From the NCBI GenBank assembly GCA_026705925.1, contig JAPOZT010000008.1:68217-132216 (forward strand): DNA of 64,000 bases. The letters are read 5' to 3'. The notes below the pieces were generated by a model. That model was given only the letters and a program-made list of their open reading frames with translations, had not been told where the DNA came from and did not search any database. Shown here piece by piece: positions 18,253 through 60,755 of this stretch; the first letter of the stretch is position 1; the number at the start of each line of letters is the position of its first letter. A program made the position numbers and the translations under genes. Source of the stretch: Gemmatimonadota bacterium (lineage in GTDB: Bacteria > JAAXHH01).

Positions 18253-18366
18253 GGGGCCGTCAGTTTCAGGGCGGCCGTCAGTTCCAGCGGGGCCGTCAGT
18301 TTCAGGGCGGCCGTCAGTTCCAGCGGGGCCGTCAGTTCCAGGGCGGCCGTCAGTTCCAGGGCGGCA
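18253..18366. repeat. tandem 18-nt repeat (GGCCGTCAGTTYCAGSGS) x ~6
   Basis: Near-perfect contiguous copies directly after the murT-like stop (18250), overlapping the 3' end of the convergent PhyH gene. Confidence 0.85.
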
Positions 18367-19123
18367 GGTCGCACCCCTTGAACGGGTAGTGATCGCCGGG
18401 CCTGAACCGGGGGAGCGGAGGGTAGTGGTTGATGCCGTCCACGGTCTTGCCCCGGCACAGGTAGGCGGGGAAGTTCTCGCGCTTGATGCGCGTGGTCGTT
18501 GGTATGTACCGGAGGGTCAGTCCGCACCGTCGCCGGTCGGACAGGTTGGCCTCCGAGCCGTGTATCAGGTAGGGATCGTGCAAGGATACGCCGCCCGCCG
18601 GCACGACGACGTCGACCGCCTCGGATTCATCCACCTTCACATCCAGTTCCGAACTCAATACGTTTTCCCCTTCGGTTCTACGGTGCCGGTACAGTTTCTG
18701 GTCCCGGTGGCTGCCGGGGATGACCCGCATGCAGCCGTTCTCCGGGGTCGAGTCGTCCACGGCCAGCCAGATGGTAATGACTTCCATGGGCTCCAGCGGC
18801 CAGTAGTTCCCGTCCTGGTGCCACAGCACCGGCTGCCCGTCCCCAGGCGGCTTGCTGATGTAATGTGCCGCGAAGAGCGCGATGTCGGGACCCAGAAAGG
18901 GTTCGATGACGTCGATTAGCCGGGGGTCGGTGCAGAGGCGGATCCAGAACGGATCGTCCACGATGAGGTGGTGGTGGTACTGCTCCGGCCGGATGTCGGG
19001 GTACTTCTCTCCCATCCACTCGACATGGCCCTGGGCTTCGGCGGTCAGGGCTTCGTCGATGACCCCGGGCAGGACGACATAGCCGTCTTCTTCGTACCGG
19101 CTTACGATATTGGCGCCGTTCAC
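18350..19123 (-). CDS. phytanoyl-CoA dioxygenase (PhyH) family Fe(II)/2-oxoglutarate oxygenase
   Basis: PhyH pattern VLWHQDGNYW...MRVIPGSH...DRRRCGLTLRY. Confidence 0.85.
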   Translation of the reverse strand: MNGANIVSRYEEDGYVVLPGVIDEALTAEAQGHVEWMGEKYPDIRPEQYHHHLIVDDPFWIRLCTDPRLIDVIEPFLGPDIALFAAHYISKPPGDGQPVLWHQDGNYWPLEPMEVITIWLAVDDSTPENGCMRVIPGSHRDQKLYRHRRTEGENVLSSELDVKVDESEAVDVVVPAGGVSLHDPYLIHGSEANLSDRRRCGLTLRYIPTTTRIKRENFPAYLCRGKTVDGINHYPPLPRFRPGDHYPFKGCDLPPWN

Positions 19124-23375: not shown

Positions 23376-24281
23376 ATGGAACTGGAAGTCCTGAAAACCG
23401 TCGTGCAACTCGTGTCCGGCGCGCTGATCGGCGCCTGCATCGGCATGACCGGCATTGGTGGCGGGGTCCTCCTGCTGCCCGTTCTGACGCTGGGATTCGG
23501 CCTGCCGTCCACGGTGGCGGTGGGCACCGCCCATCTCTATTCCTTTCTTTGCAAGCTCCCGGCCGTATTCTTCCATTTCAGGCAGGGGACCATCCGGTTC
23601 CGCACCTCGGTGTATTTCCTGGCGGGCGCGGTGCCCGTCTCCGTGGCCGTCGCCCTCTGGATCACAGGGTACGCCGGCGACATGGATCCGGCCGACCCGG
23701 CATGGCGCGAACTCCAGACGAATCTCCGCCAGTTCATCGCAGCGGTAGTTATCCTGTCGGGTCTGATGATTCTGTGGCACACGTTCTTGCGGCCGGTTTC
23801 CCGCGTGCTAAAGGCCCGGGCGGGGCTGGCGGGCAAGGCGGGCCAGGCGGGCCAGGCGGGCCAGGAAAGCCAGGTGGGCCTGGTGGGCCTGGCTGTCCGG
23901 CGGATTTCCGCCCGGATCACGGGTGCGAAGATCGCCCTCGCGGTGGTGCTGGGCGCCGTCATCGGCGGGCTGATCGCCTCCACCTCGGTGGGCAGCGGCA
24001 TCCTGATCGTGCCGATTATGATCATCGTCTACCGCCTCACCGCGGTGGACACGGTGGGGTCCTCGATTTTCATTGCGCTGTCGCTGACCTTCACGAGTTC
24101 GATCATCTATGCCGGCAGCAGTCAGCTGGATCTCGCCATCGCCGTGACCATGGCCGCCGGATCGCTGGTGGGCGTACCCCTGGGCGTGCGGATGTCCCGC
24201 AGGATCCCGGAGCGCTACCTGCAGATCACCATCACCGGACTGGTGCTGGTGGCGGGAGGGGTCATGTTGCTCGGGGGGTGA
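23376..24281 (+). CDS. sulfite exporter TauE/SafE family membrane protein
   Basis: Two DUF81 halves (GIGGGVLLLPVLTLGFG and the second half). The central loop holds a GQAGQAGQ microsatellite. Confidence 0.8.
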   Translation: MELEVLKTVVQLVSGALIGACIGMTGIGGGVLLLPVLTLGFGLPSTVAVGTAHLYSFLCKLPAVFFHFRQGTIRFRTSVYFLAGAVPVSVAVALWITGYAGDMDPADPAWRELQTNLRQFIAAVVILSGLMILWHTFLRPVSRVLKARAGLAGKAGQAGQAGQESQVGLVGLAVRRISARITGAKIALAVVLGAVIGGLIASTSVGSGILIVPIMIIVYRLTAVDTVGSSIFIALSLTFTSSIIYAGSSQLDLAIAVTMAAGSLVGVPLGVRMSRRIPERYLQITITGLVLVAGGVMLLGG

Positions 24282-24290
24282 CGAGCGGGA

Positions 24291-25085
24291 TCAGGGCGAC
24301 GCGAATATATCGTTCAACACGCCGCTCAGGCGGATACCGGCCTGCAGCAGTCTGAGTCTGACCCCGTCGGCATGCTTGAAGATATAGTCAAAGCCCAGGT
24401 AAGGGGTCCTTTCGGAACGGGAGTCGCCGAAGTCATAGACTGCCGGCAGCATGCTCCGAGATTCCCGCGCCCAGTCATATACGTCCGAACGGCGCCACGC
24501 CTCGATCTCGCCGGGTTCGGCGTGCCCGAAGAACCGGACCCATTCCGTGAAGCTCAGCCGCTGGTGCTCGACGAGGTGCTCGTCCCAGACTCTGTGGAGG
24601 TTCGTGGTTTCGCCGAACCACCGGACCCGGATATCGTTGCCGCCGCGGTCGCTGGCATAGCCCACGTGCAGTGGCTGGTGGACGTCGGCCACGAAGTGCG
24701 CCAGGAATTTCAACGCTTCCACCCGTTCCTTCCTGCTCGATCCGCGGTTTCTCAACACCCGTTCGAAACGCTGAATGGCCTCGACCACGTCGCCGTCCGG
24801 ACTTCTTTTCGCCGATTCAATCGACTGGCCGGGCGCCGCGTTGACGTAATGCCACGGCGAGGCATGGTCCCAGGCGGGATCGGACTTGATCTCGTCTGCC
24901 CACGTGCCGATCTGTGCCAGCGAAGCGCGGCCGACGAGTTCGGAAATGCCCTTTCGGGCCGCGTCCGTCAGGTGGTTCTCGGCGATCTGGCCCACGATGC
25001 GGTGGCCGTTCGGTCCCCAGGCTGCGGTCGGCAGGGACCCGCACAGCAGGAGGATCGAAGCGATGGCTATTCGTGCATTGCGCAT
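24291..25085 (-). CDS. S1/P1 nuclease family (zinc-dependent) with signal peptide
   Basis: WGPNGHRIVGQIA N-terminus after a signal peptide, WHYVN, and the HQPLH zinc-ligand motif. Confidence 0.8.
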   Translation of the reverse strand: MRNARIAIASILLLCGSLPTAAWGPNGHRIVGQIAENHLTDAARKGISELVGRASLAQIGTWADEIKSDPAWDHASPWHYVNAAPGQSIESAKRSPDGDVVEAIQRFERVLRNRGSSRKERVEALKFLAHFVADVHQPLHVGYASDRGGNDIRVRWFGETTNLHRVWDEHLVEHQRLSFTEWVRFFGHAEPGEIEAWRRSDVYDWARESRSMLPAVYDFGDSRSERTPYLGFDYIFKHADGVRLRLLQAGIRLSGVLNDIFASP

Positions 25086-25106
25086 GAGCGGTTCTCCGGT
25101 ATGTGT

Positions 25107-26579
25107 TCAGGGTACGTAGGAGGATTTCGGATCCGTGGGAGGCGGCGGCCAGTGCAAACCCCGCTGGCCCGACAGGCCCCGGTTGGGCGGCAACGTGTAT
25201 TCTCGGTCCGGCAGGCCGGTCAGTTCTCCGTTCTGTATCCACGCCGGGTCCAGGTCGGCCAGTTGGTCCACCAGCCGTGCCTTCAACCGACCGACGATTT
25301 CGGCATGACCGGACGAATCCGATAGATCGCGGCGTTCTTCCGGGTCTTGCTCGAGGTCGAATAACTGCGTTCGGTTGCCCACCGGATAGTAGATCAGCTT
25401 GTGCCGGCCGTCGTGCATCATGCGCGTGGCCTGGGCGTTCTCGCCGCATTCGCCGTACAGGTATTCACGCCTGTCGACACCCGCCATGGAACGGCCTTCG
25501 ACCGAGCCGGGGACGTCGATCCCCGCGAGGTCGAGCAGCGTGGGCATAACGTCCTGCCAGCCCACGAGCCGGTCGTCGGTGCGGCTGTGTCCGACCCGGT
25601 CGTCGCCGGCCTGGCCCACGAGTATCATGGGTACGTTGGCCGATTGCTCGTAATACAGGCGCTTCGTTCACAGGCCGTGATCGCCCAGCATGTCCCCGTG
25701 GTCGGCCGTGAAGAGCACGATCGTGTTGTCGATCAGGCATTCCTCCCGCAACGTGCCGATCACCACGCGCAACTGGTGGTCGATGTGGGTACACAGCGCG
25801 TAGAATGCCCTTCTCGCCCATGCGATCTGGGTGTCGCTCATCCCGCAGTTGTTACCCCGAACCGCCTTCAGCGCATAAGGCAAGGCGTCGTGGTCCTCCG
25901 CCCAGTCGCCGCAGTACGGCGTGCCCGGATCCTCGTCACGGTACAGGTCCAGGTAACACTGCAGAGGGGTCAGCGGGGGATGGGGATGGCAGTAGGACAG
26001 GTACCAGAATCCCGGTCGTGTCGGATCGCGGCGCCGGATCATCCGGGCCATCTGGCGTGTGGTCCAGTTGGTAACGTGCATGGCCTCGGGCAGATGCCAG
26101 GGCCGCTGGCTGTAGTCGTTGTTGCTCATGCCGTGGGTGAATCCTTCTCCGGCGTAACCGTTCTCACCGAGAAAAGCCTCGTAGTCGTCCAGTGCGCCGA
26201 TGTTCGGACGGCCCTCTTCCGCCAGGATCACGTCGTCGAACCCGATCCGGTCACGCTGCGGGTACACGTGCAGCTTGCCCACGGCGTAAGCCTGGTATCC
26301 GTTGTCCCGGAAGGTCTGGGCTACGGTGGGGAGCGGCGGCATGGGATTATCGACCTTGAACACCCGGTCGCCGTGCGTTGCCGTGGTCGTTCCGGTCATG
26401 ATCGTCCTGCGGGCGGGAATGCATACCGGGCATTCGCTGTAGGCCCGCGTATACCTGACCCCGCTGCGGGCAAGGGTATCCAGGGTGGGCGTCTGGATCA
26501 CCGGATGTCCCGCGTGACCGAACAGCTTGCCCGGCCAGTGATCGGTACAGACGAGCAATACGTGTGGAGATGACGGCAT
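25107..26579 (-). pseudogene. type I sulfatase (CxPxR formylglycine motif) interrupted by an in-frame TGA at 25668-25670; otherwise intact
   Basis: CTDHW...SECPVCIPARRTIMTG. The sequence reads DHGDMLGDHGL*TKRLYYEQSANVP where homologues (e.g. BetC) have DHGDMLGERGLWYKMNFFEGSARVP. Both halves are in the same frame. No signal peptide. Confidence 0.7.
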
Positions 26580-26891
26580 GGCGCTCCCGCATGAATTATA
26601 CATCGAGTTCAGTCGCGTCGATCGAATACCACAATATACGACACGCGCTGCCGGGTGTCCACCTGTACCGTCGAATGCAGACCATGCGTATAAATTGAAA
26701 GATCGTGTTGACAAGTCTTTATATATCTGTATATTCGTTTATCAGGATATAGTCGTATTCATCGCGCGTGAGCCGCCGTGATGAGGCTCCCGTATGGGAC
26801 TGTCGCGCGTGAGCCGCCTCACAAGGGTTGACGCTCAGGTGCGGCCAGGAACGGACCTCGATACAGGTGCTGATACGCGGGGGGTAATCTT

Positions 26892-27305
26892 ATGGATAGA
26901 GATGTCGCCGTATTCAAGGCTTGTTCGGACGCGACGCGCCTCCGCATACTGTTCCTGCTGACCGAGCGGGAACTATGCGTGTGCGAAATCATGGCGGTCC
27001 TGGATATGCCACAGGGCAAGATCTCCCGGCACCTGGCCGTGCTGAAGCAGTACGGACTGCTTACGGATCGCCGCGACGGCGTATGGATCTACTACGCGCT
27101 GGCCACAGACTCCTCGATCGCCCTGAAGTACGTGTCGGTATATCTCGTCTCGGCCCGCCAGGTCCACGCGCGGGTCCAGGCGGACCTGGACCGGTTGCGC
27201 GGACTGGCCAGCGAGGGCAAGATCTGCGTGCCCCAGCCCTCAATGGCCCTGCTACAGGTAGACGAACGTGATGACCCGGTCCTGCGCGGTCAATCGATGG
27301 TGTAA
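26892..27305 (+). CDS. arsR: ArsR/SmtB family metalloregulator
   Basis: HTH plus the ELCVCEI metal-binding motif. Confidence 0.85.
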   Translation: MDRDVAVFKACSDATRLRILFLLTERELCVCEIMAVLDMPQGKISRHLAVLKQYGLLTDRRDGVWIYYALATDSSIALKYVSVYLVSARQVHARVQADLDRLRGLASEGKICVPQPSMALLQVDERDDPVLRGQSMV

Positions 27306-27316
27306 GGGGAGTTGCA

Positions 27317-28039
27317 GTGAAACCGTACCTACAGGAAACAGCCAGCAGCCCGGACCTCATTCGTTATCTGCAGGCGCGACTGGCGGAATTCCGCCTGATT
27401 CCGGCAGACCGTAAGAAGGCACTGGACCACGTTTCCAAATACATCATGGAGCGGCAGAGCAGCGGAGAACCGACCCGACTGATCTTCATCTGCACACACA
27501 ATGCCCGCCGGAGCCAGATGGCCCAGATCTGGGCCCAGGCCGCCGCGTGGTTTTTTGGCATACGGGGAATTGCCGCGTTCTCGGGCGGCACGGAGGCCAC
27601 CGCCTTCGATCAGAGAGCCGTATCGGCGATGGTCCGGGCGGGATTCCGGGTTGAACTGCAATCGGAGGGGGCCAACCCGGTCTATCTCGTTCATGCAGGG
27701 ACTAAACTCTCCCCGGTGCGCGCGTTCTCCAAGGTTTACCACGATCCATCCAACCCGCAGCACGGTTTCTGCGCAGTCCTGACCTGTTCGAGCGCCGATC
27801 GCGAGTGTCCGGTGATACCCACGGCGGACCAGCGCGTGCTCATCCCATACGAAGACCCCAGGTCCGCCGATGGCACGGACCGGGAGGCGGAGGTCTACGA
27901 CGAACGATGCCGGGAGATCTGCCGCGAGATGGTATGGGTGTTTGCGAGGGCGGCCGGGACGGGCGAAGCGGCCGGAGCGGACGAAGCCGCTGGTGCGGGC
28001 GAAGCGGCCGGGCGCAGATCCACCACGAATTCAACCTGA
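27317..28039 (+). CDS. arsC: arsenate reductase, LMW-PTP (thioredoxin-coupled) type, with ~60-aa N-terminal extension
   Basis: P-loop CTHNARRSQ (CX5R). Downstream [11 protein letters not shown] Cys pair. C-terminal GEAAG repeats. Confidence 0.8.
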
Positions 28040-28047
28040 GCGCATCC

Positions 28048-29088
28048 ATGGATACAACGACGAAACGGCTGTCGGGGCGAGACCGGTACCTGACGCTGTG
28101 GATATTCCTGGCCATGGGCCTCGGCGTCGCACTCGGCGTTTGGACGCCGGATGTGCCCGCACTGATCCAGCTCGGCCAGGTGGGCACGACCAACCTGCCC
28201 ATCGCCATCGGGCTCATCCTGATGATGTATCCCCCGCTGGCCAAGGTAAAGTACGAGGAACTGTGGGACGTTTTCCGCAACGTGCGGATCCTCGGCGCGT
28301 CCCTCTTCCTGAATTGGGTCGTCGGCCCCATGCTCATGTTCGGACTCGCGGCGATCTTCCTGCCGGCGCATCCCGAATACATGACCGGCCTGATCCTCAT
28401 CGGCCTGGCCCGGTGTATCGCCATGGTCATCGTGTGGAACGAACTCGCGAAGGGAAACACGGAGTACGCCGCCGGCCTCGTGGCCTTCAACAGCCTGTTC
28501 CAGGTCTTCTTCTACAGCGTGTACGCCTATGTCTTCATCACGGTGCTTCCACCCTGGTTCGGACTGGAAGGCAGCGTCGTGCCGGTAACGATCGCGCAGA
28601 TCGCGGAGAGCGTGCTCATCTACCTGGGCATCCCCTTCTTCAGCGGCATGGCGACGCGCCTGATCCTGCTGCGGCTCAAGGGACGGCCCTGGTACGAGTC
28701 GACCTTCATCCCCCGCATCAGCCCCATCACCCTGGTGGCGCTGCTGTTCACCATCGTGGTCATGTTCAGCCTGAAGGGCGATACGATCGTGGCCATCCCC
28801 CTGGACGTGGTCCGAATCGCCGTTCCGCTCCTCGTGTATTTCGTGCTCATGTTCCTGATCACCTTCTGGATGGGACGGAAGATCGGCGCGGACTATTCAA
28901 AGAACGCCACGCTTTCCTTCACCGCCGCAAGCAACAACTTCGAACTGGCCATCGCCGTGGCCGTGGCCGTCTTCGGCATCGAATCGGGCGTGGCCTTCGC
29001 AGCGGTCATAGGCCCCCTCGTCGAAGTGCCGGTAATGATCGCGCTGGTCAACGTGGCCCTGCGGTTCCGGGCCATGTATTACAAATGA
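28048..29088 (+). CDS. acr3: arsenite efflux permease ACR3 family
   Basis: [20 protein letters not shown]...[13 protein letters not shown] is typical of ACR3. 346 aa. Confidence 0.85.
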
Positions 29089-31295: not shown

Positions 31296-32411
31296 ATGCG
31301 TCGTCACCAGGTTCTGTATCGAATAATGTGTCTTTCCCGGTCAGCCGCCACTGCGGTGTGCATCGCTTTCCTGGCGGCATTCATCGCGGTGGGGTGCGGC
31401 GATGCCAGCTCCGAGGCCGCGGAGAAGGCGAACGGCGATGAGGAAGGAACGGCTGAGGCCGACACCACGGAGGTGCCGCCGGTCCCGGTGAACGTGATCG
31501 AGGCTTCCATCGGGACCATTTCCGACATCGTATTGACAACCGCGACGGTGGAGGCCGACCGCGACGCGCAGATCTTCCCGCGGACCAACGCGATGATCGA
31601 AGAGGTGCGGGTGGAAGAAGGCGCCTACGTGAAACGGAACGATGTGCTCGCCGTGCTCGAGAACGACGAGGAAGAGGTGGCCCTCGCGAGAGCGGAAGCG
31701 ATCCGGGAGGCCCGCAAGCAGGAATTCGATCGATCGCTTGCCCTGCTGAACGCCCAGCTCATCAGCGAGGTGGACCACGAGGCGAAGGAGCGGGAGTTAA
31801 TCTTGGCCAGGGCGGACTGGGACGCCGCCAAGGTGGCCTACGACAAGACGACGATCCGGGCGCCATTCAGCGGCACGATCACGGAACGCCACCAGAACGT
31901 CGGCAACATGGCGCGGTCGGGAGACGCACTCTTCACACTGGTCGACCTCAACTCGCTGCTCATCTACACCCATCTGCCCGAAATGGAGTGGGCCCACGTG
32001 GCTGTGGACCAGGAGGTCATCCTGGAGACCGAAACCCTCACGGACGGCGAGTTTCAGGGTTCGGTCCTCAGAGTGAGTCCCATCATAAACCCGCAGAACG
32101 GCACCTTCAAGGTCACGATCAAGATCGACGATCCGGACTGGCGCTTGAAACCCGGCATGTTCGTCCGGGTCAAGATCCTGGCCGACCAGCACGAGGACGT
32201 GATCCTGATCCCCAAGATCGCCCTGCTTGAGGACAACGAGGTCTTCGTCGTCAAGGAAGACACCGTAGCGACCCGCGTCCCGCTTACCCTGGGCCTGCAG
32301 GACTCCGATGTCAGTGAGATACGCGAGGGGCTCAATCCCGGGGACCTGGTCGTGATCGCCGGTCACCGGAGCATGAAAGACAGTACGCGGGTCAAGATCG
32401 TATCTCCCTGA
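31296..32411 (+). CDS. RND efflux periplasmic adaptor (MFP/HlyD-like)
   Basis: Signal/TM region, coiled-coil hairpin, and a beta-barrel domain typical of membrane fusion proteins. Confidence 0.8.
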   Translation: MRRHQVLYRIMCLSRSAATAVCIAFLAAFIAVGCGDASSEAAEKANGDEEGTAEADTTEVPPVPVNVIEASIGTISDIVLTTATVEADRDAQIFPRTNAMIEEVRVEEGAYVKRNDVLAVLENDEEEVALARAEAIREARKQEFDRSLALLNAQLISEVDHEAKERELILARADWDAAKVAYDKTTIRAPFSGTITERHQNVGNMARSGDALFTLVDLNSLLIYTHLPEMEWAHVAVDQEVILETETLTDGEFQGSVLRVSPIINPQNGTFKVTIKIDDPDWRLKPGMFVRVKILADQHEDVILIPKIALLEDNEVFVVKEDTVATRVPLTLGLQDSDVSEIREGLNPGDLVVIAGHRSMKDSTRVKIVSP

Positions 32412-32429
32412 CCTGCGGGAATCCTCGTT

Positions 32430-35400
32430 ATGACCATCGTAGACTTCGCGATCCGCAGGCCGGTCACCGTCACCATGCTGGTTCTGGCGGCGCTGATCTT
32501 CGGCTATGTCTCCTTCGACCGGCTCGCGGTCAATCTCCTGCCGGACATAACTTACCCCTCTCTCACCGTTCGAACCGAGTACGAAGGCGCGGCGCCCGAA
32601 GAGATCGAAAACCTGATCTCGCGGCGCATCGAGGAGGCCGTGGGGGTCATCACGGGACTGGTCGAAGTCAGTTCCATCTCCCGGGCCGGCATATCGGACG
32701 TGGTGCTTGAATTCGACTGGGACACGGACATGAACCTTGCGATCATGGACGTGCGGGAACGGGTGGACCGCGTCTTTCTGCCCCAGGACGCCGAGCGGCC
32801 TCTCCTCCTTCGATATAACCCCGAACTCGATCCGATCATGCGCCTCGGCCTTTCCGGCGAAGATCTCATCATGCTCCGCAATCTGGCGGACTGGGAGATA
32901 CGCAGACAGCTGGAGACGATCCCCGGGGTGGCCTCCGTACGGATGAAGGGCGGACTGGTCGAGGAAATCCAGGTGGAAATCGACGAGGCCCAGCTGACGC
33001 GCCTGGGTCTCACGTTCCAGCAGATCAATCAGCGTCTCGCCGCGGAGAACATAAACCAGGCCGGAGGGCAGCTCAGGGACGGAGACGAGGAGTTGATCGT
33101 CCGCGCGGTGAACGAATTCCGGACGGTGGAGGAGATCGGCGAGATCATTATCTCCCAGCGGGGAGAGGCACCGGTCCGGCTGCACGACCTGGCCACGGTT
33201 AAGCGCCACTTCAAAGAGCGGAAAACCGTCACGCGGATCAACGGGCAGGAAAGCGTGGAAATCGCCCTGTTCAAGGAAGCCGACGCCAATACGGTGAAAG
33301 TGGCCAGGGCCATCAAAGAGCGACTGGGCGATGTATCGGTGGGGATGAGCGTAGCAGATCGTGCCGACGAAGAGGCGCCACCGGACGATGAAGGGGACGT
33401 GGACGCAAACGCCGTCGCCGGTACGGAAACGACGGTGGGCGACGAACGGCGCTCCGTGGTTTCAACGCTGCCGGAAGGCGTGTCGCTGTATATCGTATCG
33501 GACCAGTCCCGTTTCATTGAGAGCGCCATTGATGAAGTAATCAGTACCGCCAGGTGGGGCGGTCTGTTGGCGATCCTGGTACTGTTCCTTTTCCTTCGCA
33601 ACCTGAAAAGCACTCTGATCGTCGGCGTCGCCATCCCCGTTTCGGTGCTGATCACCTTCATCCTGATGTTCTTCAGCGACACTACGCTCAATATCATGTC
33701 ACTCGGAGGCCTGGCACTTGGTATCGGCATGCTGGTCGACAACGCCATCGTGGTACTGGAGAGCATTTTCAGGTGCCGGGAGGAAGGCGACTCCATCGTC
33801 GAAGCGGCCCGGCGCGGAGCGTCGGAGGTTGGCATGGCCGTTACGGCGTCGACCCTCACCACCATCGCCGTGTTCTTCCCCATCGTATTCATCGAAGGGA
33901 TTGCCGGCCAGATCTTCACCGACCAGGCCCTGACGGTCACTTTCGCCCTGCTGGCTTCCCTCGCCGTGGCCCTTACCTTCATCCCCATGATGGCCTCCCG
34001 GGAAGGTGGGACGGGCGGCGCGGGCGGCGCGGGCCTGTGGATGCAGGCGGCGTACAGGGATTTTCACCGGACCTCGCCGGAGGACCGTGGCTTCGCCTTA
34101 AGCTGGTTCGCCGGGAGGGCAAAGCGCGATACCGGTTCGTGGTTCAAGGGGACCTTTCCCGGCCTGACGTGGTTCGGGGAGACTTCCCGGAATTTCAGGA
34201 CGCGTGCGAACGGCCGACGGTCCTTGCCGGGCTGGATCGTTCTCTTCCCACTCTACTTCGCGGGTCGTTTCTTCCTGCTGGTCTGGCAATGGCTGAAGGG
34301 ATGCGTGGTCCATAGGAGAGAAGGGGCGGCACCGGAGGGCGGGAAACGCTGGCTTCGGGCTGCCGTGTTCGTTCCGAAATGGATCGCGGTCTTCCTGTTT
34401 CGCTTGGTGCTGCCCTTCTTCGAGCTGATTCGATTTGCGGTCGGAAGCACCTTCAAGATCCTGTTTACGGTCATACCGAACCTTCTCGCCCTGGTGCTGA
34501 CGCCGGTCTGGCTGCTGATCCGCGGTATATTCTGGATCCTTGGGAAGGTGCTGCATCCGGTCCTGCACCTCTTCAGTCGCGGCCTTACGGTCTTGCAGGA
34601 TATCTACGTATCCGTGCTTTCCCGGGTCCTGGCGCACCGTTTTGCCACGTTGATTGTCATCGCGGCAATCGTGGGAACCTCCGCGGTACTCATTCCCCGC
34701 CTCGGTACGGAACTCATACCGGAACTGGAACAGGGCGAGTTCGCAGTGGACCTGATCCTGCCGACCGGCACGCCGCTCGCGACCACCGATACGACTGCGA
34801 CGAGGATCGAAAACCTGGTCCGGGACGACCCTGACGTCGAACAGGTCTATGTCGTCGTGGGTGCGTTGGAATCGAGCGGCGCGCTCATCGACGAAGAACG
34901 GGAGAACGTCGCGCGGGTGGCCGTAATGCTTCAGGCCGAAGCCATGAGGGAGAAGGGAAGCGACGAAGTCATGGACCGATTGCGGTTCCGCCTGGAGGAG
35001 ATACCGGACGCCCGCGTCGAGTTCGCACGGCCGGCCCTTTTCAGTTTCAAGACCCCGCTCGAACTGGAGATCCGGGGGTACAACCTGAAGGATCTGCGCG
35101 AAGTGAGCGGCGAGGTGGTCGGCGCTCTCGACGGGGTAGAGGGCCTCAGGGACGCCCGGTCCCTGATGGAGGAAGGACATCCCGAAGTCGTGGTCGTATT
35201 CGACCGTGACCGCATGGCGGCCCTGGGCGTGGACATCGGGCAGGCCGCGGACGCGATCAGGAACAAGGTCCGCGGCAGCGTGGCTACCCAGTTTTCAGCG
35301 GGGGACCGGAAAATCGACATCCTGGTGCGGGCGCGGGAGGAGGACCGGAAGGAAATCGCCCAGTTGAAGGCCCTGGCCGTGAACACCCCGAATCGGGGAA

Positions 35401-36218
35401 ACGCAAGCAACCCCAGTATGCCGAACCGGAACGCCTCCGGCGAGGACCCCGAATCGTCGAACAGTTTGCCTGCGCAACCTGGATCCGAGCGCAGTTCCGT
35501 GCTGCTCGGCGCCGTGGCGCAGGTCCACATGGACGAGGGGCCGAGCGAGATCCGGCGCATCGACCAGCAGCGCGTGGCGCTCGTGACGGCCAATCTGACG
35601 GGGATTGACCTGGGAAGCGTCGCAAGGGATGTACAGTCCAGACTGGCCGGACTCCCCCTGCCCGATGACTTCAGAATCGACCTGGGGGGGCAATACCGGG
35701 AGATGAACACGGCGTCCAGCAGCATGCTTCTGGCTATCGCCATGGCCGTGTTCCTGGTCTACCTGGTCATGGCTTCCCAGTTCGAGTCGCTGATCCACCC
35801 CTTTATCGTCATGTTCTCCTTTCTCCTCGCCCTTTCCGGCGTGCTGCTGGCCCTGTACCTGCTCGACATCACGGTCAGTGTCGTGGTCCTGATCGGCATC
35901 ATCATGCTGGCCGGGATCGTAGTGAACAACGCGATCGTGCTGGTCGACTATATCAATCGATTGCGGCGAAGGGGGGAAGACCGGATCGAGGCGGTCATTA
36001 AGGCCGGCCGCGTCAGGCTGCGTCCCATTCTGATGACGACCGCGACGACGGTGCTCGGCCTGCTGCCCCTGGCGCTGGGCGTGGGCGAAGGCGCGGAGAT
36101 ACGCACGCCGCTCGCCATCACCGTCATAGCCGGCCTGATTTCTTCCACGGTGTTGACCCTGATCGTGATACCCGTCATATATACCATACTGGACAGAAAA
36201 GAGGACGCGGTCACGTAA
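32430..36218 (+). CDS. RND efflux permease (AcrB/MdtB-like) with ~175-aa hydrophobic insertion between TM6 and TM7
   Basis: 1262 aa, AcrB-type topology. After TM6 (LTFIPMMASR), 33.99-34.64 kb encodes extra hydrophobic helices before TM7 and the conserved LIPELEQGEF segment. Confidence 0.85.
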   Translation: MTIVDFAIRRPVTVTMLVLAALIFGYVSFDRLAVNLLPDITYPSLTVRTEYEGAAPEEIENLISRRIEEAVGVITGLVEVSSISRAGISDVVLEFDWDTDMNLAIMDVRERVDRVFLPQDAERPLLLRYNPELDPIMRLGLSGEDLIMLRNLADWEIRRQLETIPGVASVRMKGGLVEEIQVEIDEAQLTRLGLTFQQINQRLAAENINQAGGQLRDGDEELIVRAVNEFRTVEEIGEIIISQRGEAPVRLHDLATVKRHFKERKTVTRINGQESVEIALFKEADANTVKVARAIKERLGDVSVGMSVADRADEEAPPDDEGDVDANAVAGTETTVGDERRSVVSTLPEGVSLYIVSDQSRFIESAIDEVISTARWGGLLAILVLFLFLRNLKSTLIVGVAIPVSVLITFILMFFSDTTLNIMSLGGLALGIGMLVDNAIVVLESIFRCREEGDSIVEAARRGASEVGMAVTASTLTTIAVFFPIVFIEGIAGQIFTDQALTVTFALLASLAVALTFIPMMASREGGTGGAGGAGLWMQAAYRDFHRTSPEDRGFALSWFAGRAKRDTGSWFKGTFPGLTWFGETSRNFRTRANGRRSLPGWIVLFPLYFAGRFFLLVWQWLKGCVVHRREGAAPEGGKRWLRAAVFVPKWIAVFLFRLVLPFFELIRFAVGSTFKILFTVIPNLLALVLTPVWLLIRGIFWILGKVLHPVLHLFSRGLTVLQDIYVSVLSRVLAHRFATLIVIAAIVGTSAVLIPRLGTELIPELEQGEFAVDLILPTGTPLATTDTTATRIENLVRDDPDVEQVYVVVGALESSGALIDEERENVARVAVMLQAEAMREKGSDEVMDRLRFRLEEIPDARVEFARPALFSFKTPLELEIRGYNLKDLREVSGEVVGALDGVEGLRDARSLMEEGHPEVVVVFDRDRMAALGVDIGQAADAIRNKVRGSVATQFSAGDRKIDILVRAREEDRKEIAQLKALAVNTPNRGNASNPSMPNRNASGEDPESSNSLPAQPGSERSSVLLGAVAQVHMDEGPSEIRRIDQQRVALVTANLTGIDLGSVARDVQSRLAGLPLPDDFRIDLGGQYREMNTASSSMLLAIAMAVFLVYLVMASQFESLIHPFIVMFSFLLALSGVLLALYLLDITVSVVVLIGIIMLAGIVVNNAIVLVDYINRLRRRGEDRIEAVIKAGRVRLRPILMTTATTVLGLLPLALGVGEGAEIRTPLAITVIAGLISSTVLTLIVIPVIYTILDRKEDAVT

Positions 36219-36264
36219 TGAACGTGACCCCGGACAACGCGGAAGCAAACATGCAGAGGGACCG

Positions 36265-39200
36265 ATGTTCAAATTTCTGACACCCGCCAACTGGACCGCC
36301 TTCGCCTTTCGCCGGCCGGTGACCGTTTTCATGGTGCTGATCAGCGCGATCCTCTTCGGTTTGGTTTCGTTCAGGCTGCTTCCGCTGGAGTTCATCCCCG
36401 CGGTCGAATGGACGGGCATGAACGTCTGGGTCCCCTATCCCAATTCCACGCCCGAGGACAACGTACAGCTGATCGCCCGGCCCCTGGAGGACGAACTGAA
36501 GACGCTGCGCGGACTGGTTCGCGTGGAATCCAACGCGAGTACCAGCGGGGTGAACGTCAATCTGCGCTTCGACTACGACACCGACATGAAGCTGGCCTAC
36601 GTGGAAGCCCGCGACCGCGTGGAGCGGGTGCGACCCCGGCTGCCCGACGACATTGACCGCATCTGGATAAGGAAGTTCTCCACGACCGACATTCCCATCA
36701 TGTTCCTTGCCATGTCGTGGCACGGAGACCAGGATGCGCTGTTCCAGGTGGTTGACGAGCAGCTCCGGCCCCGTCTCGAACGGCTGGACGGCATCGCCGG
36801 TATTGACACGTGGGGTTCCCAGGCGCGGCAAGTGATCATCGATTTGGATCAAGATCGACTGAAAGCATATAGGATGAATCCCGATCTGTTCATCAGGGCC
36901 ATGAACCAGGCGAACATGGACTCGCCGGGGGGATACGTGGACGACGGCGGTTTCCGCTACCTCGTCCGCCTCACGGGCGCGTTCCAGTCCGTCGAAGACA
37001 TCCAGGCGTTCCCCATCAACGAACGCGGTCTTCGGCTTGGGGACGTCGCCGAAGTGGCTTACCGCAAACCCACGACCCTCCGGCGCGCCCGCCTCGACGG
37101 CCAGGACGCCGTCGGGATGGTCATCCGCAAGGAATCCAATGCCAACACCGTGGACGTTACGTCCGCCGTCCGGGAAACGCTGGACGAGTTGACCCGAGAC
37201 CCGCGATGGCCCGGCCTGACCTACCACGTCTTCTTCGAGCAGTCCTCCTGGATCCTGGGATCGCTGAAAGCCCTCGGCAACGCCGGGATGTGGGGAGGGC
37301 TGTTCGCCATGGGCGTGCTGTTCTTCTTCCTGAGAAGGTACCGGACGACCTTCATCATCGCCGCTTCCATACCGGCATCCATCCTGGTCACGTTCACGGC
37401 CATGTATTTCATCAATTCGAGCTACCAGATCCTGTCGCTCAATATCGTGTCCCTGATGGGACTGATGCTCGGCATCGGCATGCTGGTGGACAACGCCGTC
37501 GTGGTCCTCGAGAACATCCTCAGGCTGCGCCGCCAGGGCGTGGAACCCGTCCAGGCGGCCATCCAGGGCGCCCGGGAGGTCTCGGTGGCCGTCAGCGCTG
37601 CCACGCTCACCACGGCTATCGTATTTTTGCCCCTGCTCTTCATCGGCGGCGGCGGCGCGCAGACGCAAATGCGCGAACTGGGGCTGGTCATCACCATTTC
37701 CCTGGTTTCGTCCCTGATCATGTCGCTGAGCTTCATTCCCCTGCTCGCATCCCGCCTGCTGAAGGACGGCTCACTACCCAACATCGGTTTGCTGGATGCG
37801 CTGGAACAGAAATACAGCAGCGTGATCGGCTGGGTGCTAAACCACCGGCTCGACGTGGCGCTCATCCTGGTCGGCTTCATTGTGTTGACCATGCTCGTAC
37901 CCATGCAAAAGGTCAGTTTCACCAACACGCCGACGGACCAGCGACAGATATGGATGTACGTCGAACCCGGCCCGTTTATCAATCTCGAAGAGACCGAACA
38001 GTTTGTGAACCAACGGGAAAACGAGTGGCTGGCCGCGGCGGACTCGCTGAACATCAAGGCCATACGCACCGACTTCCGACCCGGCCAGGTCTGGTTCAAC
38101 GTGTACCTTAAAAACGAGCAGGACGACTCGGCCTGGGAGGGATTGCTCCACAGGGCAGCGTATCCGTGGGTGTGGGCTTCGCTGGTGGGTTGCGCTTTCC
38201 TCCTGGTCGTGTTTCGCAGAAACGCCTACGCCTTCCAGGTCCTTGCCGTTGCCGCGGCGCTGTACGTGGCTATCCTGATCATTCTCGGTTCCCAGGGCGG
38301 GGTGGAGACCTACCGTACTTCGGAAGAGGTCGCCAAAGACCTGCGCGAGTCGATTCCAGAGGCGCCGGGGCGGGTCGTAAAGTGGCGGTGGGGGGAGGAA
38401 GGCGAGGAAGATCCCAGGGTGAGTATTGCCCTGAGCGGCGAAGACTCCAGGCTGCTTGAGGAGATCAGCGAGGATGTTGATAACAGGCTCAGCCAGTTGC
38501 CCGAAATCACGGCGATCACCACCGATCTCGACAACGACGAAACCCAGGACGAGTTGCGCGTCAGCGTGGATCGGGACCTGGCGGGCAAGTTCGGACTGAC
38601 GCCCCAGCGTATCGCCTCCATGACCCTCTCCGGTATCAGGGGTCAGGAATTGAAACGGTTGAAGACCCTGGACCGGGAGATACGGGTCTGGGTTCAGTCG
38701 GACGAAGCGGACCGTAAGACCGTCCACCAGCTTCAAGACCATGCGGTCTTTCTGGACGATGGAACGCAACTCCCGCTCGCCACCATGGCCAGTTTCGAAC
38801 AGAGCCCGGCCTTCCGAACGGTCTATCGCCGGGACAGCCAGACCATCCTCATGGTCCGCGCGAACACCACTACCGAAGGCATAGAGACCCTGGGCGACAG
38901 AATAAGCGCGAGCCTGGAGGATCTGTCCCTTCCCCGGGGCTACTCCTGGCGGCTTGGAGAACGCTGGGAGCGACTGGAAGAAGACACGCAGACCATGGTG
39001 CTGGCGGCCATGCTGGCGTTGGTCGCGGTCCTGCTGCTGCTGGGATCGTTGTTCGAGTCTTACATCGATCCCCTGATCATTGTCCTGGTATCCATCCCCT
39101 TCGCCTACATCGGGTGCTACTGGATGCTCTTCGCGACCGGCACCAACATGTCCGCACTCGCGATGATCGGGGTTGTGATCCTCATCGGGGTGGTCGTGAA

Positions 39201-39528
39201 CAACGCCATCGTCTTTATCGACCACATCAAGAACCTGGAGAAAGAGGGCCGTCTGAAGGGCCGGGAGCTGATCATCCAAGCCGGGCGCGACCGCCTGCGG
39301 CCGATCCTGATGACGGCGCTGACGACCATGCTCGGCCTGCTGCCCATGGCGATCGGCACCGCCGCGATAGGAAACCAGCCGTACTACCCGATGGGCCGAT
39401 CCGTGATGGGCGGCCTGATCTTCTCCACCATCGGCGCCATGATCGCGCTGCCCCTGGTCTACAGCGCCTTCGAAGACCTTCGAAACTGGTGGGGCGGCAT
39501 CGTGGCGAGGATCCGGCGCCCGGTATGA
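36265..39528 (+). CDS. RND efflux permease (AcrB/MdtC-like), second permease of the locus
   Basis: 1087 aa, AcrB family. Together with the adaptor it resembles an MdtABC heteromeric arrangement. Confidence 0.85.
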   Translation: MFKFLTPANWTAFAFRRPVTVFMVLISAILFGLVSFRLLPLEFIPAVEWTGMNVWVPYPNSTPEDNVQLIARPLEDELKTLRGLVRVESNASTSGVNVNLRFDYDTDMKLAYVEARDRVERVRPRLPDDIDRIWIRKFSTTDIPIMFLAMSWHGDQDALFQVVDEQLRPRLERLDGIAGIDTWGSQARQVIIDLDQDRLKAYRMNPDLFIRAMNQANMDSPGGYVDDGGFRYLVRLTGAFQSVEDIQAFPINERGLRLGDVAEVAYRKPTTLRRARLDGQDAVGMVIRKESNANTVDVTSAVRETLDELTRDPRWPGLTYHVFFEQSSWILGSLKALGNAGMWGGLFAMGVLFFFLRRYRTTFIIAASIPASILVTFTAMYFINSSYQILSLNIVSLMGLMLGIGMLVDNAVVVLENILRLRRQGVEPVQAAIQGAREVSVAVSAATLTTAIVFLPLLFIGGGGAQTQMRELGLVITISLVSSLIMSLSFIPLLASRLLKDGSLPNIGLLDALEQKYSSVIGWVLNHRLDVALILVGFIVLTMLVPMQKVSFTNTPTDQRQIWMYVEPGPFINLEETEQFVNQRENEWLAAADSLNIKAIRTDFRPGQVWFNVYLKNEQDDSAWEGLLHRAAYPWVWASLVGCAFLLVVFRRNAYAFQVLAVAAALYVAILIILGSQGGVETYRTSEEVAKDLRESIPEAPGRVVKWRWGEEGEEDPRVSIALSGEDSRLLEEISEDVDNRLSQLPEITAITTDLDNDETQDELRVSVDRDLAGKFGLTPQRIASMTLSGIRGQELKRLKTLDREIRVWVQSDEADRKTVHQLQDHAVFLDDGTQLPLATMASFEQSPAFRTVYRRDSQTILMVRANTTTEGIETLGDRISASLEDLSLPRGYSWRLGERWERLEEDTQTMVLAAMLALVAVLLLLGSLFESYIDPLIIVLVSIPFAYIGCYWMLFATGTNMSALAMIGVVILIGVVVNNAIVFIDHIKNLEKEGRLKGRELIIQAGRDRLRPILMTALTTMLGLLPMAIGTAAIGNQPYYPMGRSVMGGLIFSTIGAMIALPLVYSAFEDLRNWWGGIVARIRRPV

Positions 39529-39586: not shown

Positions 39587-40369
39587 TCAAGCTTTAACCC
39601 CAACCGCTTCCATGCCCTCGGCCAGTCGCCGCAAGCGGGGACGCTCGCTATCCATGAACGACGGATGGGGCTGAAATCCCTTCGGTGCGCCTTCACGCAG
39701 CATGTCCCGGTGGGCATCGGAGTGCGGACGGGGGCCGAACTTGAAGACGATGACCCGCCGTTTTCCCGCTTTTCCGAAAACCGCGTGGTAGAGCCACTGG
39801 TTGAACAGGACGATATCGCCGGGTTCGGTCTCGACGGCGCATCCGGGGATCCGGGGGCCGTCGACGCCGAAAGGGCTGGGATCGCCGCCCAGGTGAGCGT
39901 CCTGTAGGGGCAGGAGCGCCTGATGCAAGGGGTCCCGGTGGGAACCTGGGATGACCCGCAGCGCGCCGGTATCCTTCGTCTGCGGATCGAGGTACAGCAT
40001 GACCTTGGTCCGGGTATAGTCGAGTAGCCGTGACGTCTTGTGGCCGTCGAAATGCCAGGTGTGGTCGGCCAGCTCAGGGTCGATCCCCCACATCCCCTCC
40101 GAACCGATCCAGATGAGGTCGTCGCCCAGGAGTTCCGTCACGGGCAGGTAGATCCGGTCGTCTTCCACGAGCCGCGTCAACTCGAGGCGCGACTCCACGA
40201 ACTCCCCGTCCCAGAACCATTCCTCTTCGCCGATGTCGCGGCCGAGCTTCTGCGCGCACGCCGCGGCGGCCTCTTGGATCAGCGCGTCTACTTCGTCGGT
40301 GGCAAAGGCCTGGCGAATGACCAGGAAACCGAAGGTATGGAAATGTTCGATCTGGCCGCTGGACAGCAT
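39587..40369 (-). CDS. PhyH-family Fe(II)/2OG dioxygenase
   Basis: GALRVIPGSH plus an HxD...H facial-triad pattern. Confidence 0.8.
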   Translation of the reverse strand: MLSSGQIEHFHTFGFLVIRQAFATDEVDALIQEAAAACAQKLGRDIGEEEWFWDGEFVESRLELTRLVEDDRIYLPVTELLGDDLIWIGSEGMWGIDPELADHTWHFDGHKTSRLLDYTRTKVMLYLDPQTKDTGALRVIPGSHRDPLHQALLPLQDAHLGGDPSPFGVDGPRIPGCAVETEPGDIVLFNQWLYHAVFGKAGKRRVIVFKFGPRPHSDAHRDMLREGAPKGFQPHPSFMDSERPRLRRLAEGMEAVGVKA

Positions 40370-40408: not shown

Positions 40409-41215
40409 TCACTCCGTCACGATCCTGCTGCGTGACAGCAGTGCCCTGCCGCGGTCCGACAGCTTGCCGTACTCCGCTTCCGTCATCTCGATCGTGGACG
40501 TGCGGAACCACGGTCTCGAATAGCAGATGACCAGCTCCGCCCGGGCATGGTTCGACCGGTTCGGCGTGCCCCGATGAAGGGCCCTCGGGTCCTGCACCCA
40601 GAAGGTGCCCTTCTTCAGGTTCAGCCGGTGGGCGGGCGGGAAATCCCCCCGAAGCAACACGTCATCGTAGGATTTCTCCATGTCGGGGTCCGCCAGATAC
40701 TGCGTGCCCGGCATGACTTCGAAGCTGCCGTTCTCTTCGCTGGTGTCCACCAGGGGAAACTTGATGCCGAAATGGGGGCAGACCGGCAGGCCGATATGAG
40801 GTGTAATCAGGTGAATGTCCCGGTGCCAGGGCTGGTACTCGCTGCCCGGATAGGGATTGTTGGAGTGGTAGCAGGTGAGGTGGAAGTCGTCCGCGCCCCA
40901 GTATCGTTCCAGGAAAGCCAGCACTACGGGGTGCTCGTAGATCTCCGGATCGGAATATGGTGGTTCCCAGGGAACGTGCATGGTATAGCGATTGACGAAC
41001 TGCTGCCGCCCCTTGCCCGTCCTCACCTCGCCCCTTTCCTCCGGGTGGACCTCGTGTTCTTCCCGGGCCTTGAGCCGGTCGAGCCGCGGCATGAAAGCCG
41101 CCCGTATGCGGTCAATCTTCTCCTGTGCGATAAGGTTCTCGAAGAGCGTGAACCCGCTGATCCTGAGTTCCGCCACCTTCAGGTCGAGGTCGTAGTCGGT
41201 CGGCGTGGACGACAT
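40409..41215 (-). CDS. PhyH-family Fe(II)/2OG dioxygenase
   Basis: WHRDIHL...FEVMPGTQ PhyH-like pattern. In tandem with 39587-40369. Confidence 0.75.
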   Translation of the reverse strand: MSSTPTDYDLDLKVAELRISGFTLFENLIAQEKIDRIRAAFMPRLDRLKAREEHEVHPEERGEVRTGKGRQQFVNRYTMHVPWEPPYSDPEIYEHPVVLAFLERYWGADDFHLTCYHSNNPYPGSEYQPWHRDIHLITPHIGLPVCPHFGIKFPLVDTSEENGSFEVMPGTQYLADPDMEKSYDDVLLRGDFPPAHRLNLKKGTFWVQDPRALHRGTPNRSNHARAELVICYSRPWFRTSTIEMTEAEYGKLSDRGRALLSRSRIVTE

Positions 41216-41450: not shown

Positions 41451-41699
41451 ATGGACCGAAGAGCGTGGATGGACACGACCATCAAGGCGGCGCTGATCGG
41501 GGCGGCCGTCCTGATGTATCTGGATTTAAGAGCCGAGATACGACACTTGGGAAACAAGATCGACAGCGTGGAAACGAAGGTGGATGAGGTCCGGGGCTAT
41601 CTCAAGTTCAGTACTGCTGCTCCCGGCATGGAGTCTGCTCCAAATATGGAGTCTCCCGCGGCAGACCCTGAGCAGTTAAAATCTGCTCAAAAGGACTAA
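41451..41699 (+). CDS. small hypothetical protein (one TM plus coiled coil), doubtful
   Basis: The ORF sits in an AT-richer stretch, has atypical codon usage and an internal MESAP/MESPA repeat. No homology recognised. Confidence 0.25.
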   Translation: MDRRAWMDTTIKAALIGAAVLMYLDLRAEIRHLGNKIDSVETKVDEVRGYLKFSTAAPGMESAPNMESPAADPEQLKSAQKD

Positions 41700-47808: not shown

Positions 47809-48888
47809 ATGGGCTGGCGGATTGCCGATCATATAACGATCTACCGCGAAGCAGGCTGGTACGGCGCCCATCCGAACGTCGTCCAGACACCCGACGGCGA
47901 CCTGTTGACCCTGTTCCACCGGTCGCCCGCCACCGGGTTCAGCCACCACAGCCACCCGCTCTTCGACGTGCGGGCCTGCCGCTCGGATGACGAAGGACGG
48001 TCCTGGGGTCCGGCCGAACTGGTGACGGTCTATCCCTACGGCGGCGTGATCGATTTCGGGACCCACACACTATCCAGCGGTGAGATCTTCCTGCACGCCA
48101 GCACGGTGGACCTGGTCCTTGCCCAGGATCCGGAAGTCTCCAAGCATGCCTGGGTATCCCGCCCCGGCGTGGGATTTCACGTGCGTTCCCAGGACAACGG
48201 CAGGACCTGGTCGCACCCCGAACCGTTTCCGCCGCTCCCGGATGCCGTGAACGGCCATCCCGCCTCGCACACGGGGATCTGCCGGAGCGGCCTGCTGGAG
48301 ATGCCGGACGGGCGGATGCTGCTTCCGGGCAAGGCGACGGACCATCCGGAAGGCCGTCCGCCGTTCTTCGGCATGATGCAATCGTCAACAGATGGCGGCC
48401 GTACCTGGGCCTACGAAGGCCGTGTCGCCGAGGACAACGTCGCCCATTTCAGCGAACCGGCGATCTACCGGACGCCGTCCGGCAGGATCCTGGTGCTTTT
48501 CCGTTGCCATCCGAACCAGCCGCCCGGACAGGACGTGCACCTGGTAGAAGTACACTCCGACGACGGCGGCGAGACCTGGTCGCCCTGGCGGTCGACGACG
48601 ATGCGGGGATGTCCCGGTCACCTGCTCGGGCTGCGGGACGGCCGTGTCCTGGCCACAGTGGGCACCAGGTGGGAAGGACAGATGGGCTGCCTGGCGCGGG
48701 TCCTCGATCCAGAGGCCGGCGACCTGGATACCGCGCCGGATATCGTCGTGCGCGCCGATTCCCTGGAGTCCGACTGCGGGTATCCATGGTCCGTCGAATT
48801 GATGGATGGACGGGTGCTGGTCGTTTACTATTTTGTCTATGGAGACGGCACACGAGGCATAGAAGGATCGGTGCTCGAGGAATACTGA
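47809..48888 (+). CDS. BNR-repeat (sialidase/neuraminidase-like, GH33-like) glycosyl hydrolase
   Basis: Four SxDxGxTW Asp-boxes (SDDEGRSW, SQDNGRTW, STDGGRTW, SDDGGETW). Confidence 0.75.
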   Translation: MGWRIADHITIYREAGWYGAHPNVVQTPDGDLLTLFHRSPATGFSHHSHPLFDVRACRSDDEGRSWGPAELVTVYPYGGVIDFGTHTLSSGEIFLHASTVDLVLAQDPEVSKHAWVSRPGVGFHVRSQDNGRTWSHPEPFPPLPDAVNGHPASHTGICRSGLLEMPDGRMLLPGKATDHPEGRPPFFGMMQSSTDGGRTWAYEGRVAEDNVAHFSEPAIYRTPSGRILVLFRCHPNQPPGQDVHLVEVHSDDGGETWSPWRSTTMRGCPGHLLGLRDGRVLATVGTRWEGQMGCLARVLDPEAGDLDTAPDIVVRADSLESDCGYPWSVELMDGRVLVVYYFVYGDGTRGIEGSVLEEY

Positions 48889-48923: not shown

Positions 48924-49712
48924 ATGTTTCAACTGGATGCACACCAGAAGGAATTTATGGATACCTTCGGGTATCTGCACTTCCCCGGCCTGCTCGACGA
49001 CCGGATCGGCGAGATCACAGAGGCTTTCGACGGGCTGCTGAAAAAAAACGGTGGCGACGACCACGAAGGCCTGGAGCGGCTGGCCGTGGTGCCGTTCATC
49101 AACCATGATTCGTACCTGTGCACGCTGTTGGACGATCCCCGCATTCACGGCATCGCGGCCGGCCTGCTGGGCGAGCGGTACCAGTACTGGAACAGCGACG
49201 GGAACCTCTACGTCGGCGACACGCGATGGCACTCCGACACCCAGTGGCCCGAGCCCATCCGTTTCTACAAGATGGCCATCTACCTGGACCCCATGACGAA
49301 GGACACCGGCGCGTTGCGGGTCATACCGGGAAGCCACCGGTTCGGAGAAGGATATGCGGAAACCATCCACGACCACCTGTCCGGCAAAAGGGACGGCTGG
49401 GGTGGACTCCACGGCAGCGAGGTACCGGCGGTCACCGTCGAGACCCGGCCCGGCGACCTGGCAGTCTTCAACCATTCCACCAAGCACAGCGCCTGGGGCG
49501 GCGGAAAGAAAAGGCGCATGTTCACGATCGTATATACCGGACACCACACGGACGGTCGTGATCTCGAGGCCTTCAAAAAGATCATCCGCCAACACGGCTA
49601 TACAACGCGGGAGGTATTCGGTGGGGAGAACGGCCCCCTGCTTTCCACGGCCACGCCCGAACGGCTTCGTCACCTTCAAAACCTGATCACGCACATTCCG
49701 AAAGCGGCTTGA
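48924..49712 (+). CDS. PhyH-family Fe(II)/2OG dioxygenase
   Basis: WHSDTQW...GALRVIPGSHRFG. Confidence 0.8.
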   Translation: MFQLDAHQKEFMDTFGYLHFPGLLDDRIGEITEAFDGLLKKNGGDDHEGLERLAVVPFINHDSYLCTLLDDPRIHGIAAGLLGERYQYWNSDGNLYVGDTRWHSDTQWPEPIRFYKMAIYLDPMTKDTGALRVIPGSHRFGEGYAETIHDHLSGKRDGWGGLHGSEVPAVTVETRPGDLAVFNHSTKHSAWGGGKKRRMFTIVYTGHHTDGRDLEAFKKIIRQHGYTTREVFGGENGPLLSTATPERLRHLQNLITHIPKAA

Positions 49713-49744
49713 AGTTACGGCACAGGAAGGGGAATACCACCAGC

Positions 49745-56830: not shown

Positions 56831-56890
56831 CTATCGCGCCCCTATCGCGCCCCTATCGCGCCCCTATCGCGCCCCTATCGCGCCCCCCTG
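56831..56890. repeat. tandem 12-nt repeat (CTATCGCGCCCC) x5
   Basis: Five perfect copies between the J-domain gene stop and the convergent gene. It overlaps the last codons of 56864-58021. Confidence 0.85.
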
Positions 56891-58021: not shown

Positions 58022-58076
58022 GCTATCATCTCCTTTTGCATACTGGTCTGTCGGAAAGGAAGCAGGTCGGATAACG

Positions 58077-60260: not shown

Positions 60261-60297
60261 GACGATTCCTTCCGGCAGGTCGCTTTCACCATCGCGC

Positions 60298-60367
60298 CAC
60301 GCACTCGCCAAGCATGCGCCACGTACACGCCACGCACACGTCACGCACTCGCCAAGCATGCGCCACT
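60298..60367. repeat. 25-nt direct repeat x2 (CACGCACTCGCCAAGCATGCGCCAC) with 20-nt spacer, in a CACGC-rich tract
   Basis: Immediately upstream of the helicase start on the minus strand. Confidence 0.7.
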
Positions 60368-60662: not shown

Positions 60663-60755
60663 TTAGGTTTCTGGCAGAAAAGTCACCACGCCTTCGCAAG
60701 GCGCAGCCCACGTCGGTTTCGAAATGACATGGGTGTCCAGCAGGTACCCGTTCAT
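60663..60755 (-). pseudogene. VapC/PIN toxin remnant (N-terminal 30 codons then TAA)
   Basis: MNGYLLDTHVISKPTWAAPCEGVVTFLPET* matches the VapC opening (M.YLLDTNVISE..KP.P...V..WL). Its ATG overlaps the antitoxin TGA as ATGA. No PIN core follows in any frame. Confidence 0.5.

Follow-up and report, generated by a model that had tools for sequence, protein, structure and literature searches.

The choline-O-sulfatase BetC of S. meliloti (PDB codes: 6FNY and 6G5Z) uses Asp296 and His297 as metal ligands and a His201–Lys309 general-acid pair, and its K309L variant is among the active-site mutants for which the published kinetic table gives rates close to the detection limits or beneath them (PMC5870055). 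In EfAS, the Mn2+-dependent arylsulfatase of E. faecium (PDB code: 9KOQ), K324 is an active-site lysine, and oligomerisation is likewise essential (PMC12421950). In reporter libraries of E. coli, TGA is read through more than the other stop codons and is mostly replaced by Trp, at levels ranging from <1% to several percent and, under stress, far higher in some contexts (PMC11126739). Moreover, diverse bacteria have tRNA-Trp variants that decode UGA and whose anticodon stem is 4 bp long (PMC13092985). Here, we compare with these systems a sulfatase gene of a Gemmatimonadota bacterium, located in a window of 64,000 nucleotides (the whole stretch of DNA that was analysed), in which one sense codon has been replaced by TGA.

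The gene occupies a frame of 490 codons with one internal stop, as the sequence-only reading had stated when it described a single in-frame TGA in an otherwise intact sulfatase (Table 1). With Trp placed at codon 304, the frame matched the Pfam family Sulfatase (PF00884) at 3.8e-38 and 132 bits (cutoff 25) over residues 5–354. This significant match places the gene among the S1 sulfatases and runs across the stop, which agrees with the earlier statement that both halves lie in one frame and resemble sulfatases. The Trp-restored protein also matched SGSH_C (PF16347) over residues 299–439 (3.3e-17, 63.5 bits), and GC3 in the frame was 0.88 upstream of the stop and 0.85 downstream.

Table 1. Coordinates of the sulfatase gene, its parts and other features of the window.
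Feature	Position	Strand	Remarks
PhyH-family (PF05721) gene	18350-19123	-	
TauE/SafE-family anion exporter gene	23376-24281	+	
S1/P1 nuclease gene	24291-25085	-	21 nt downstream of sulfatase, co-directional; pairing kept in all orthologous loci
Sulfatase reading frame	25107-26579	-	490 codons; ATG 26579-26577; terminal TGA 25109-25107; one interruption
C-terminal fragment	25107-25628	-	MCY3712132.1, 173 aa, 'hypothetical protein'
Invariant Lys AAG, codon 306	25662-25664	-	3' of stop; absent from 303-aa product
ACG (Thr), codon 305	25665-25667	-	GCG (Ala) in all orthologues
In-frame TGA, codon 304	25668-25670	-	Ancestral TGG (Trp)
N-terminal fragment	25668-26579	-	MCY3712133.1, 303 aa, 'sulfatase-like hydrolase/transferase'
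Metal-ligand Asp/His, D-H-G	25695-25703	-	Codons 293-295; invariant in best 120 homologues
Formylglycine motif C-I-P-A-R (CxPxRxxxxTG)	26409-26423	-	Codons 53-57
Shine-Dalgarno-like GGGAG	26584-26588	-	4 nt 5' of ATG; from direct sequence reading
ars-like cluster	26892-29088	+	
ArsR-type HTH gene	26892-27305	+	
LMWPc-like gene	27317-28039	+	
Membrane-fusion protein and two RND transporter genes	31296-39528	+	RND products 1262 and 1087 aa
PhyH-family (PF05721) gene	39587-40369	-	
PhyH-family (PF05721) gene	40409-41215	-	
NAGLU-like alpha-N-acetylglucosaminidase gene	41696-44560	-	~940 aa
BNR_2 sialidase-like gene	47809-48888	+	
PhyH-family (PF05721) gene	~48924-49712	+	
PhyH-family (PF05721) gene	49709-50776	+	
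ECF-type sigma factor gene	53574-54134		
Ogt-like/Ada fusion gene	54082-55014	+	
PhyH-family (PF05721) gene	55029-55877	-	
Low-GC patch	56864-61558		GC 0.56 vs ~0.63 elsewhere
HATPase_c_4 gene	56864-58021	-	Helicase neighbour
UvrD-like helicase gene	58077-60359	-	760 aa
ORF	60549-61031		No family match
ORF	61061-61558		No family match
PhyH-family (PF05721) gene	62627-63475	-	

A protein search returned 3965 homologues, and the best 120 (~480–520 residues, 65–90% identical) were aligned. The window sulfatase carries the complete formylglycine motif, C53-I-P-A-R-R-T-I-M-T-G63, in which the Cys is shared by 119/120 homologues and the Pro, Ala, Arg, T62 and G63 by 120/120. D293-H294-G295 and K306 are likewise invariant (120/120); however, K306 follows the TGA, and the DHG motif and the catalytic lysine are thus not joined in one uninterrupted polypeptide. 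In the set of gene products examined, which spanned the window, neither an FGE (PF03781) nor a radical-SAM anSME was found. The absence of a signal peptide, which the sequence-only reading had called unusual for a sulfatase, is real but is a trait common to the whole family rather than specific to this gene: 118 of the best 120 homologues (of 3965) have 16 or fewer residues before the first beta-strand (median 6). The window sulfatase is presumably cytoplasmic.

The best match among solved structures was EfAS (2.7e-68; query residues 3–454 on chain residues 6–472). The window sulfatase shares with EfAS and the PRK13759-type arylsulfatases the S1 fold and a Cys-type CxPxR motif; in all of them, the fourth metal ligand is a His (DHG), the catalytic Lys comes two residues after an aromatic one, and the N-terminus lacks a signal sequence, the alignment to EfAS starting at residue 6 of the chain. 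However, the aromatic residue is Phe in EfAS and Trp in the window family, the window gene is interrupted, and the relation is distant, the protein scoring 272 bits where the NCBIfam model Mn_arylsulf requires 850 and, with Trp restored, 409.3 bits where the arylsulfatase equivalog NF010322 (PRK13759) requires 481. BetC belongs to the AS/PMH subgroup and has the same Asp/His type of metal site. In the alignment to the solved structures, the motif SDHGDMLGxxGLW-x-K matched D296-H297...W307-x-K309 of BetC, with W307 and K309 falling on window codons 304 and 306, and it matched H312...K324 of EfAS after a 4-residue offset in chain numbering. The stop lies two codons before K306, the residue aligned to BetC K309 and EfAS K324. 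The choline-sulfatase model TIGR03417, which has a cutoff of 433 bits, gave the window sulfatase only 209, and the gene is thus no orthologue of choline sulfatase.

At codon 304, Trp was found in 119 of the best 120 homologues (of 3965) and Tyr in the remaining one, confirming the earlier view that the stop replaces a conserved tryptophan. Position 305 is Ala in 117/120 and Thr in none. At the DNA level, the window reads CTG TGA ACG AAG where 8/8 orthologues read CTG TGG GCG AAG. This orthologue set comprised seven syntenic loci and an eighth contig (L005), which again carries the P0002 allele; all eight were uninterrupted and aligned without gaps over 1473 nt, the closest intact one being that of Gemmatimonadetes SB0665_bin_8 (94.6% nucleotide identity). 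The seven loci share a gene order in which ArsR, LMWPc-like, ACR3 and EamA genes are divergent from the sulfatase and S1/P1 nuclease genes, which in turn are convergent with TauE. The TGA had been called the only lesion; this holds in that there is no other internal stop or indel, but the adjacent codon has also changed, from GCG to ACG (A305T). The lesion replaces two adjacent bases, GG by AA (CC by TT on the forward strand at 25667–25668), yielding both the stop and A305T. As the branch is only a few percent diverged, two independent adjacent hits are unlikely, and we infer that a single tandem mutational event is the simplest source of the change. CC>TT is a classical signature of UV damage or double deamination.

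We then considered where else this allele occurs. Three runs (SRR10996931/SAMN13943209, ERR5004247 and ERR5005034) yielded contigs with the TGA, and these contigs matched the window with 0 mismatches over 1.4–20.8 kb and with 100% identical flanks. The assemblies were a SPIRE-style ENA assembly of SAMN13943209 and Logan assemblies of SRR10996931, ERR5004247 and ERR5005034; they span two archive prefixes and two pipelines or assemblers, and the independence of the runs is inferred from the accession names only, so that they may derive from related specimens or laboratories. No paper naming these accession numbers was found. A minor TGG allele may exist within the population, as TGA is known here from assembled contigs. 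A scan of GTDB representatives with the pattern TG[AG][AG]CG returned three loci, all TGGGCG, and two JGI metagenome scans gave no match to the TGA form, a weak negative since the TGG control pattern was likewise unmatched. The 47 cluster members read (40/108 of one cluster) included no intact same-strain copy, and the closest intact protein among them was 94.5% identical. Throughout the window, a GC3-based stop scan requiring >=100 open codons on each side left the codon-304 TGA as the only stop that is flanked by coding signal on both sides and does not separate two genes. The other stops flagged by the scan were rejected as interrupted genes: those at 7731, 10872, 32409 and 40409 are boundaries of distinct neighbouring genes, and that at 33029 is an antisense shadow of an RND gene.

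To place the stop in time, substitutions were polarised with the closest intact sister, SB0665_bin_8, and seven outgroups. On the terminal branch of the window, the whole gene has gained 11 synonymous and 8 nonsynonymous substitutions and no indels; the counts were 7 and 2 upstream of the stop and 4 and 6 (A305T included) downstream, whereas about 75% of random changes are expected to be nonsynonymous under neutrality. The whole-gene ratio of 11:8, the upstream ratio of 7:2 and the lack of indels indicate purifying selection over most of the terminal branch. For the downstream part, comparison with more distant sisters gave an omega of ~0.2 (p = 0.0016 and 5e-5), a clear sign of constraint; on the shortest branch, where counts are small, omega was ~0.5, which differed significantly neither from neutrality (p = 0.22) nor from the upstream part (Fisher p = 0.17). 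The stop is young relative to the ~2–3% sequence divergence, and its age is poorly bounded. About 20 neighbouring called genes match their counterparts in the relatives exactly or closely in length, and the lesion is therefore an isolated one rather than part of general genome erosion. Compared with L017 and L022, substitutions in the window lineage show a strong GC>AT bias and fall mostly at third codon positions, a spectrum that the nonsense change fits.

These observations agree with what is expected of a young nonsense pseudogene, as the orthologues are intact with TGG in 8/8 cases, synteny is conserved and the stop recurs in three runs. The nonsense pseudogenes of host-associated bacteria similarly show one lineage-specific premature stop in a conserved syntenic gene together with a GC>AT-biased spectrum; in contrast to them, the window shows no sign of wider decay. 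We conclude that the locus very probably carries a genuine young nonsense allele of a signal-peptide-less, formylglycine-type S1 gene resembling arylsulfatases, either a newly formed pseudogene or, at most, a strongly hypomorphic allele. The tandem GG>AA change would have turned TGG-GCG (Trp-Ala) into TGA-ACG (stop-Thr), and translation would end after residue 303. Judged from the alignment, the 303-residue product should be inactive because K306 and the entire C-terminal subdomain are absent, although it retains the formylglycine motif and the metal ligands. By analogy with the E. coli data, rare readthrough by tRNA-Trp would restore Trp and give a low level of full-length A305T enzyme, which would contain the junction peptide ...GDMLGDHGLWTK.

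Such readthrough might be more than incidental. In this reading, a leaky UGA is decoded as Trp, for instance by a permissive tRNA-Trp, under selection or in a programmed manner that tunes the full-length protein to a low level. The residue lost at the stop is precisely the one that near-cognate reading of UGA inserts (PMC11126739), so that misreading of the kind seen in E. coli reporters, or a reassignment as in code 4 (UGA = Trp), would restore the native residue; the TGA allele seems dominant in the three runs; UGA-reading tRNA-Trp variants are on record, as noted above; and the frame downstream of codon 304 has no further stops or indels. However, an open downstream frame is equally expected of a young pseudogene. 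TGA is limited to one terminal lineage, with TGG in all eight orthologues, and no other in-frame TGA in the 64 kb is flanked on either side by coding signal in the way seen here, with both sides coding. Moreover, TGA-A is the end of seven ordinary genes in the window, and a stretch of 81 nt that spans and follows the TGA has no unusual structure (z = -1.0 versus shuffled sequence). In E. coli reporters, it was a following G that raised readthrough, and G>A at +4 is no obvious promoter of it (PMC11126739). Unlike the E. coli readthrough contexts and code 4, the window shows no reassignment or enhanced readthrough, UGA being its main terminator. We thus regard selected readthrough as very unlikely. 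A related proposal is that the allele is not null and is maintained as a 'self-correcting' nonsense allele, in which readthrough by tRNA-Trp would supply a low, possibly stress-dependent amount of A305T sulfatase. If true, it would explain both the predominance of TGA in several samples and the open downstream frame; we consider it very improbable.

An error of sequencing, base calling or assembly, with TGG GCG as the true sequence and an intact gene, was the other possibility raised by the sequence-only reading beside a recent nonsense mutation. A one-codon lesion within an otherwise perfect gene is indeed an error-like pattern. However, the two-base difference recurs identically in three runs, two archive prefixes and two assemblers, the site does not lie in a homopolymer, and two adjacent substitution errors in every assembly are implausible. 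An artefact is therefore very unlikely, and only the nonsense mutation is retained.

In a further reading, the 303-aa and 173-aa products assemble into an active split enzyme, the second being made by reinitiation at the ATG at 25628. Two CDS are annotated by the gene callers and NCBI, and this ATG lies 39 nt past the stop; however, it is the conserved internal Met318 of the family rather than a genuine start, with no Shine-Dalgarno motif before it, and residues 304–317 would be in neither piece, including the invariant K306, Y310 and E311. In BetC, K309L severely impairs catalysis. An active split sulfatase is highly improbable.

That UGA is a sense codon here, through code 4 or 25 or as selenocysteine, has nothing in its favour besides the in-frame TGA itself and is practically excluded, in keeping with the earlier judgement that recoding is unlikely: TGA terminates 25/37 other called genes in the window and ends the window sulfatase and its orthologues at the homologous terminus, the homologues have Trp and not Cys at the site (119/120), and no SECIS-like fold (z = -1.0), no relevant Rfam match in 24000–28000 (one spurious lncRNA match) and no tRNA, tRNA-Sec included, in the 64-kb window was found.

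The surroundings of the gene were also annotated. In each of the orthologous loci, a TauE/SafE-family exporter gene lies next to the paired sulfatase and S1/P1 nuclease genes; speculatively, the exporter might remove sulfate or sulfite released in the cytoplasm. On the other side, the ars-like cluster, consisting of an ArsR-type HTH gene, an LMWPc-like gene and an ACR3/SBF permease gene, is divergent from the sulfatase and is kept in the relatives. Within 25 kb lie the NAGLU-like, sialidase-like and SGSH_C-bearing sulfatase genes, which together resemble a lysosome-like toolkit for the degradation of glycosaminoglycans or sulfated glycans.

Elsewhere in the window, seven PhyH-family dioxygenase genes within 64 kb represent a striking local expansion, two of them forming an in-frame tandem pair. 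A membrane-fusion protein gene is followed by two consecutive large RND transporter genes, and directly after an ECF-type sigma factor gene lies a gene for an Ogt-like methyltransferase DNA-binding domain with an Ada zinc-binding domain fused C-terminally. In the low-GC patch, the UvrD-like helicase gave a full-length match to PADLOC model PDLC03002 'Helicase' (962 bits); no exact product on record was found for it, the gene start probably being called differently. Its HATPase_c_4 neighbour has weak matches to pAgo-associated models. The patch may be a small defence or mobile islet.

Names of the records, namely the prefixes ROBB21 and SHAF22 and relatives among Poribacteria, Latescibacteria and Gemmatimonadota MAGs, suggest a sponge-associated Gemmatimonadota population. 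MCY3712133.1 and MCY3712132.1 were deposited from 'MAG: Gemmatimonadetes bacterium' as separate proteins and not as one pseudogene. They are the halves of one disrupted sulfatase that should be flagged as a pseudogene, and inventories of symbiont sulfatases should not enter them as one sulfatase plus one orphan. As a nonsense pseudogene, the allele is of an ordinary kind and no surprise to specialists. TGG>TGA is the most forgiving nonsense change, since leaky decoding restores the original residue. The locus offers a clean, small case of a gene inactivated very recently in a host-associated bacterium, probably via a tandem CC>TT-type mutation.
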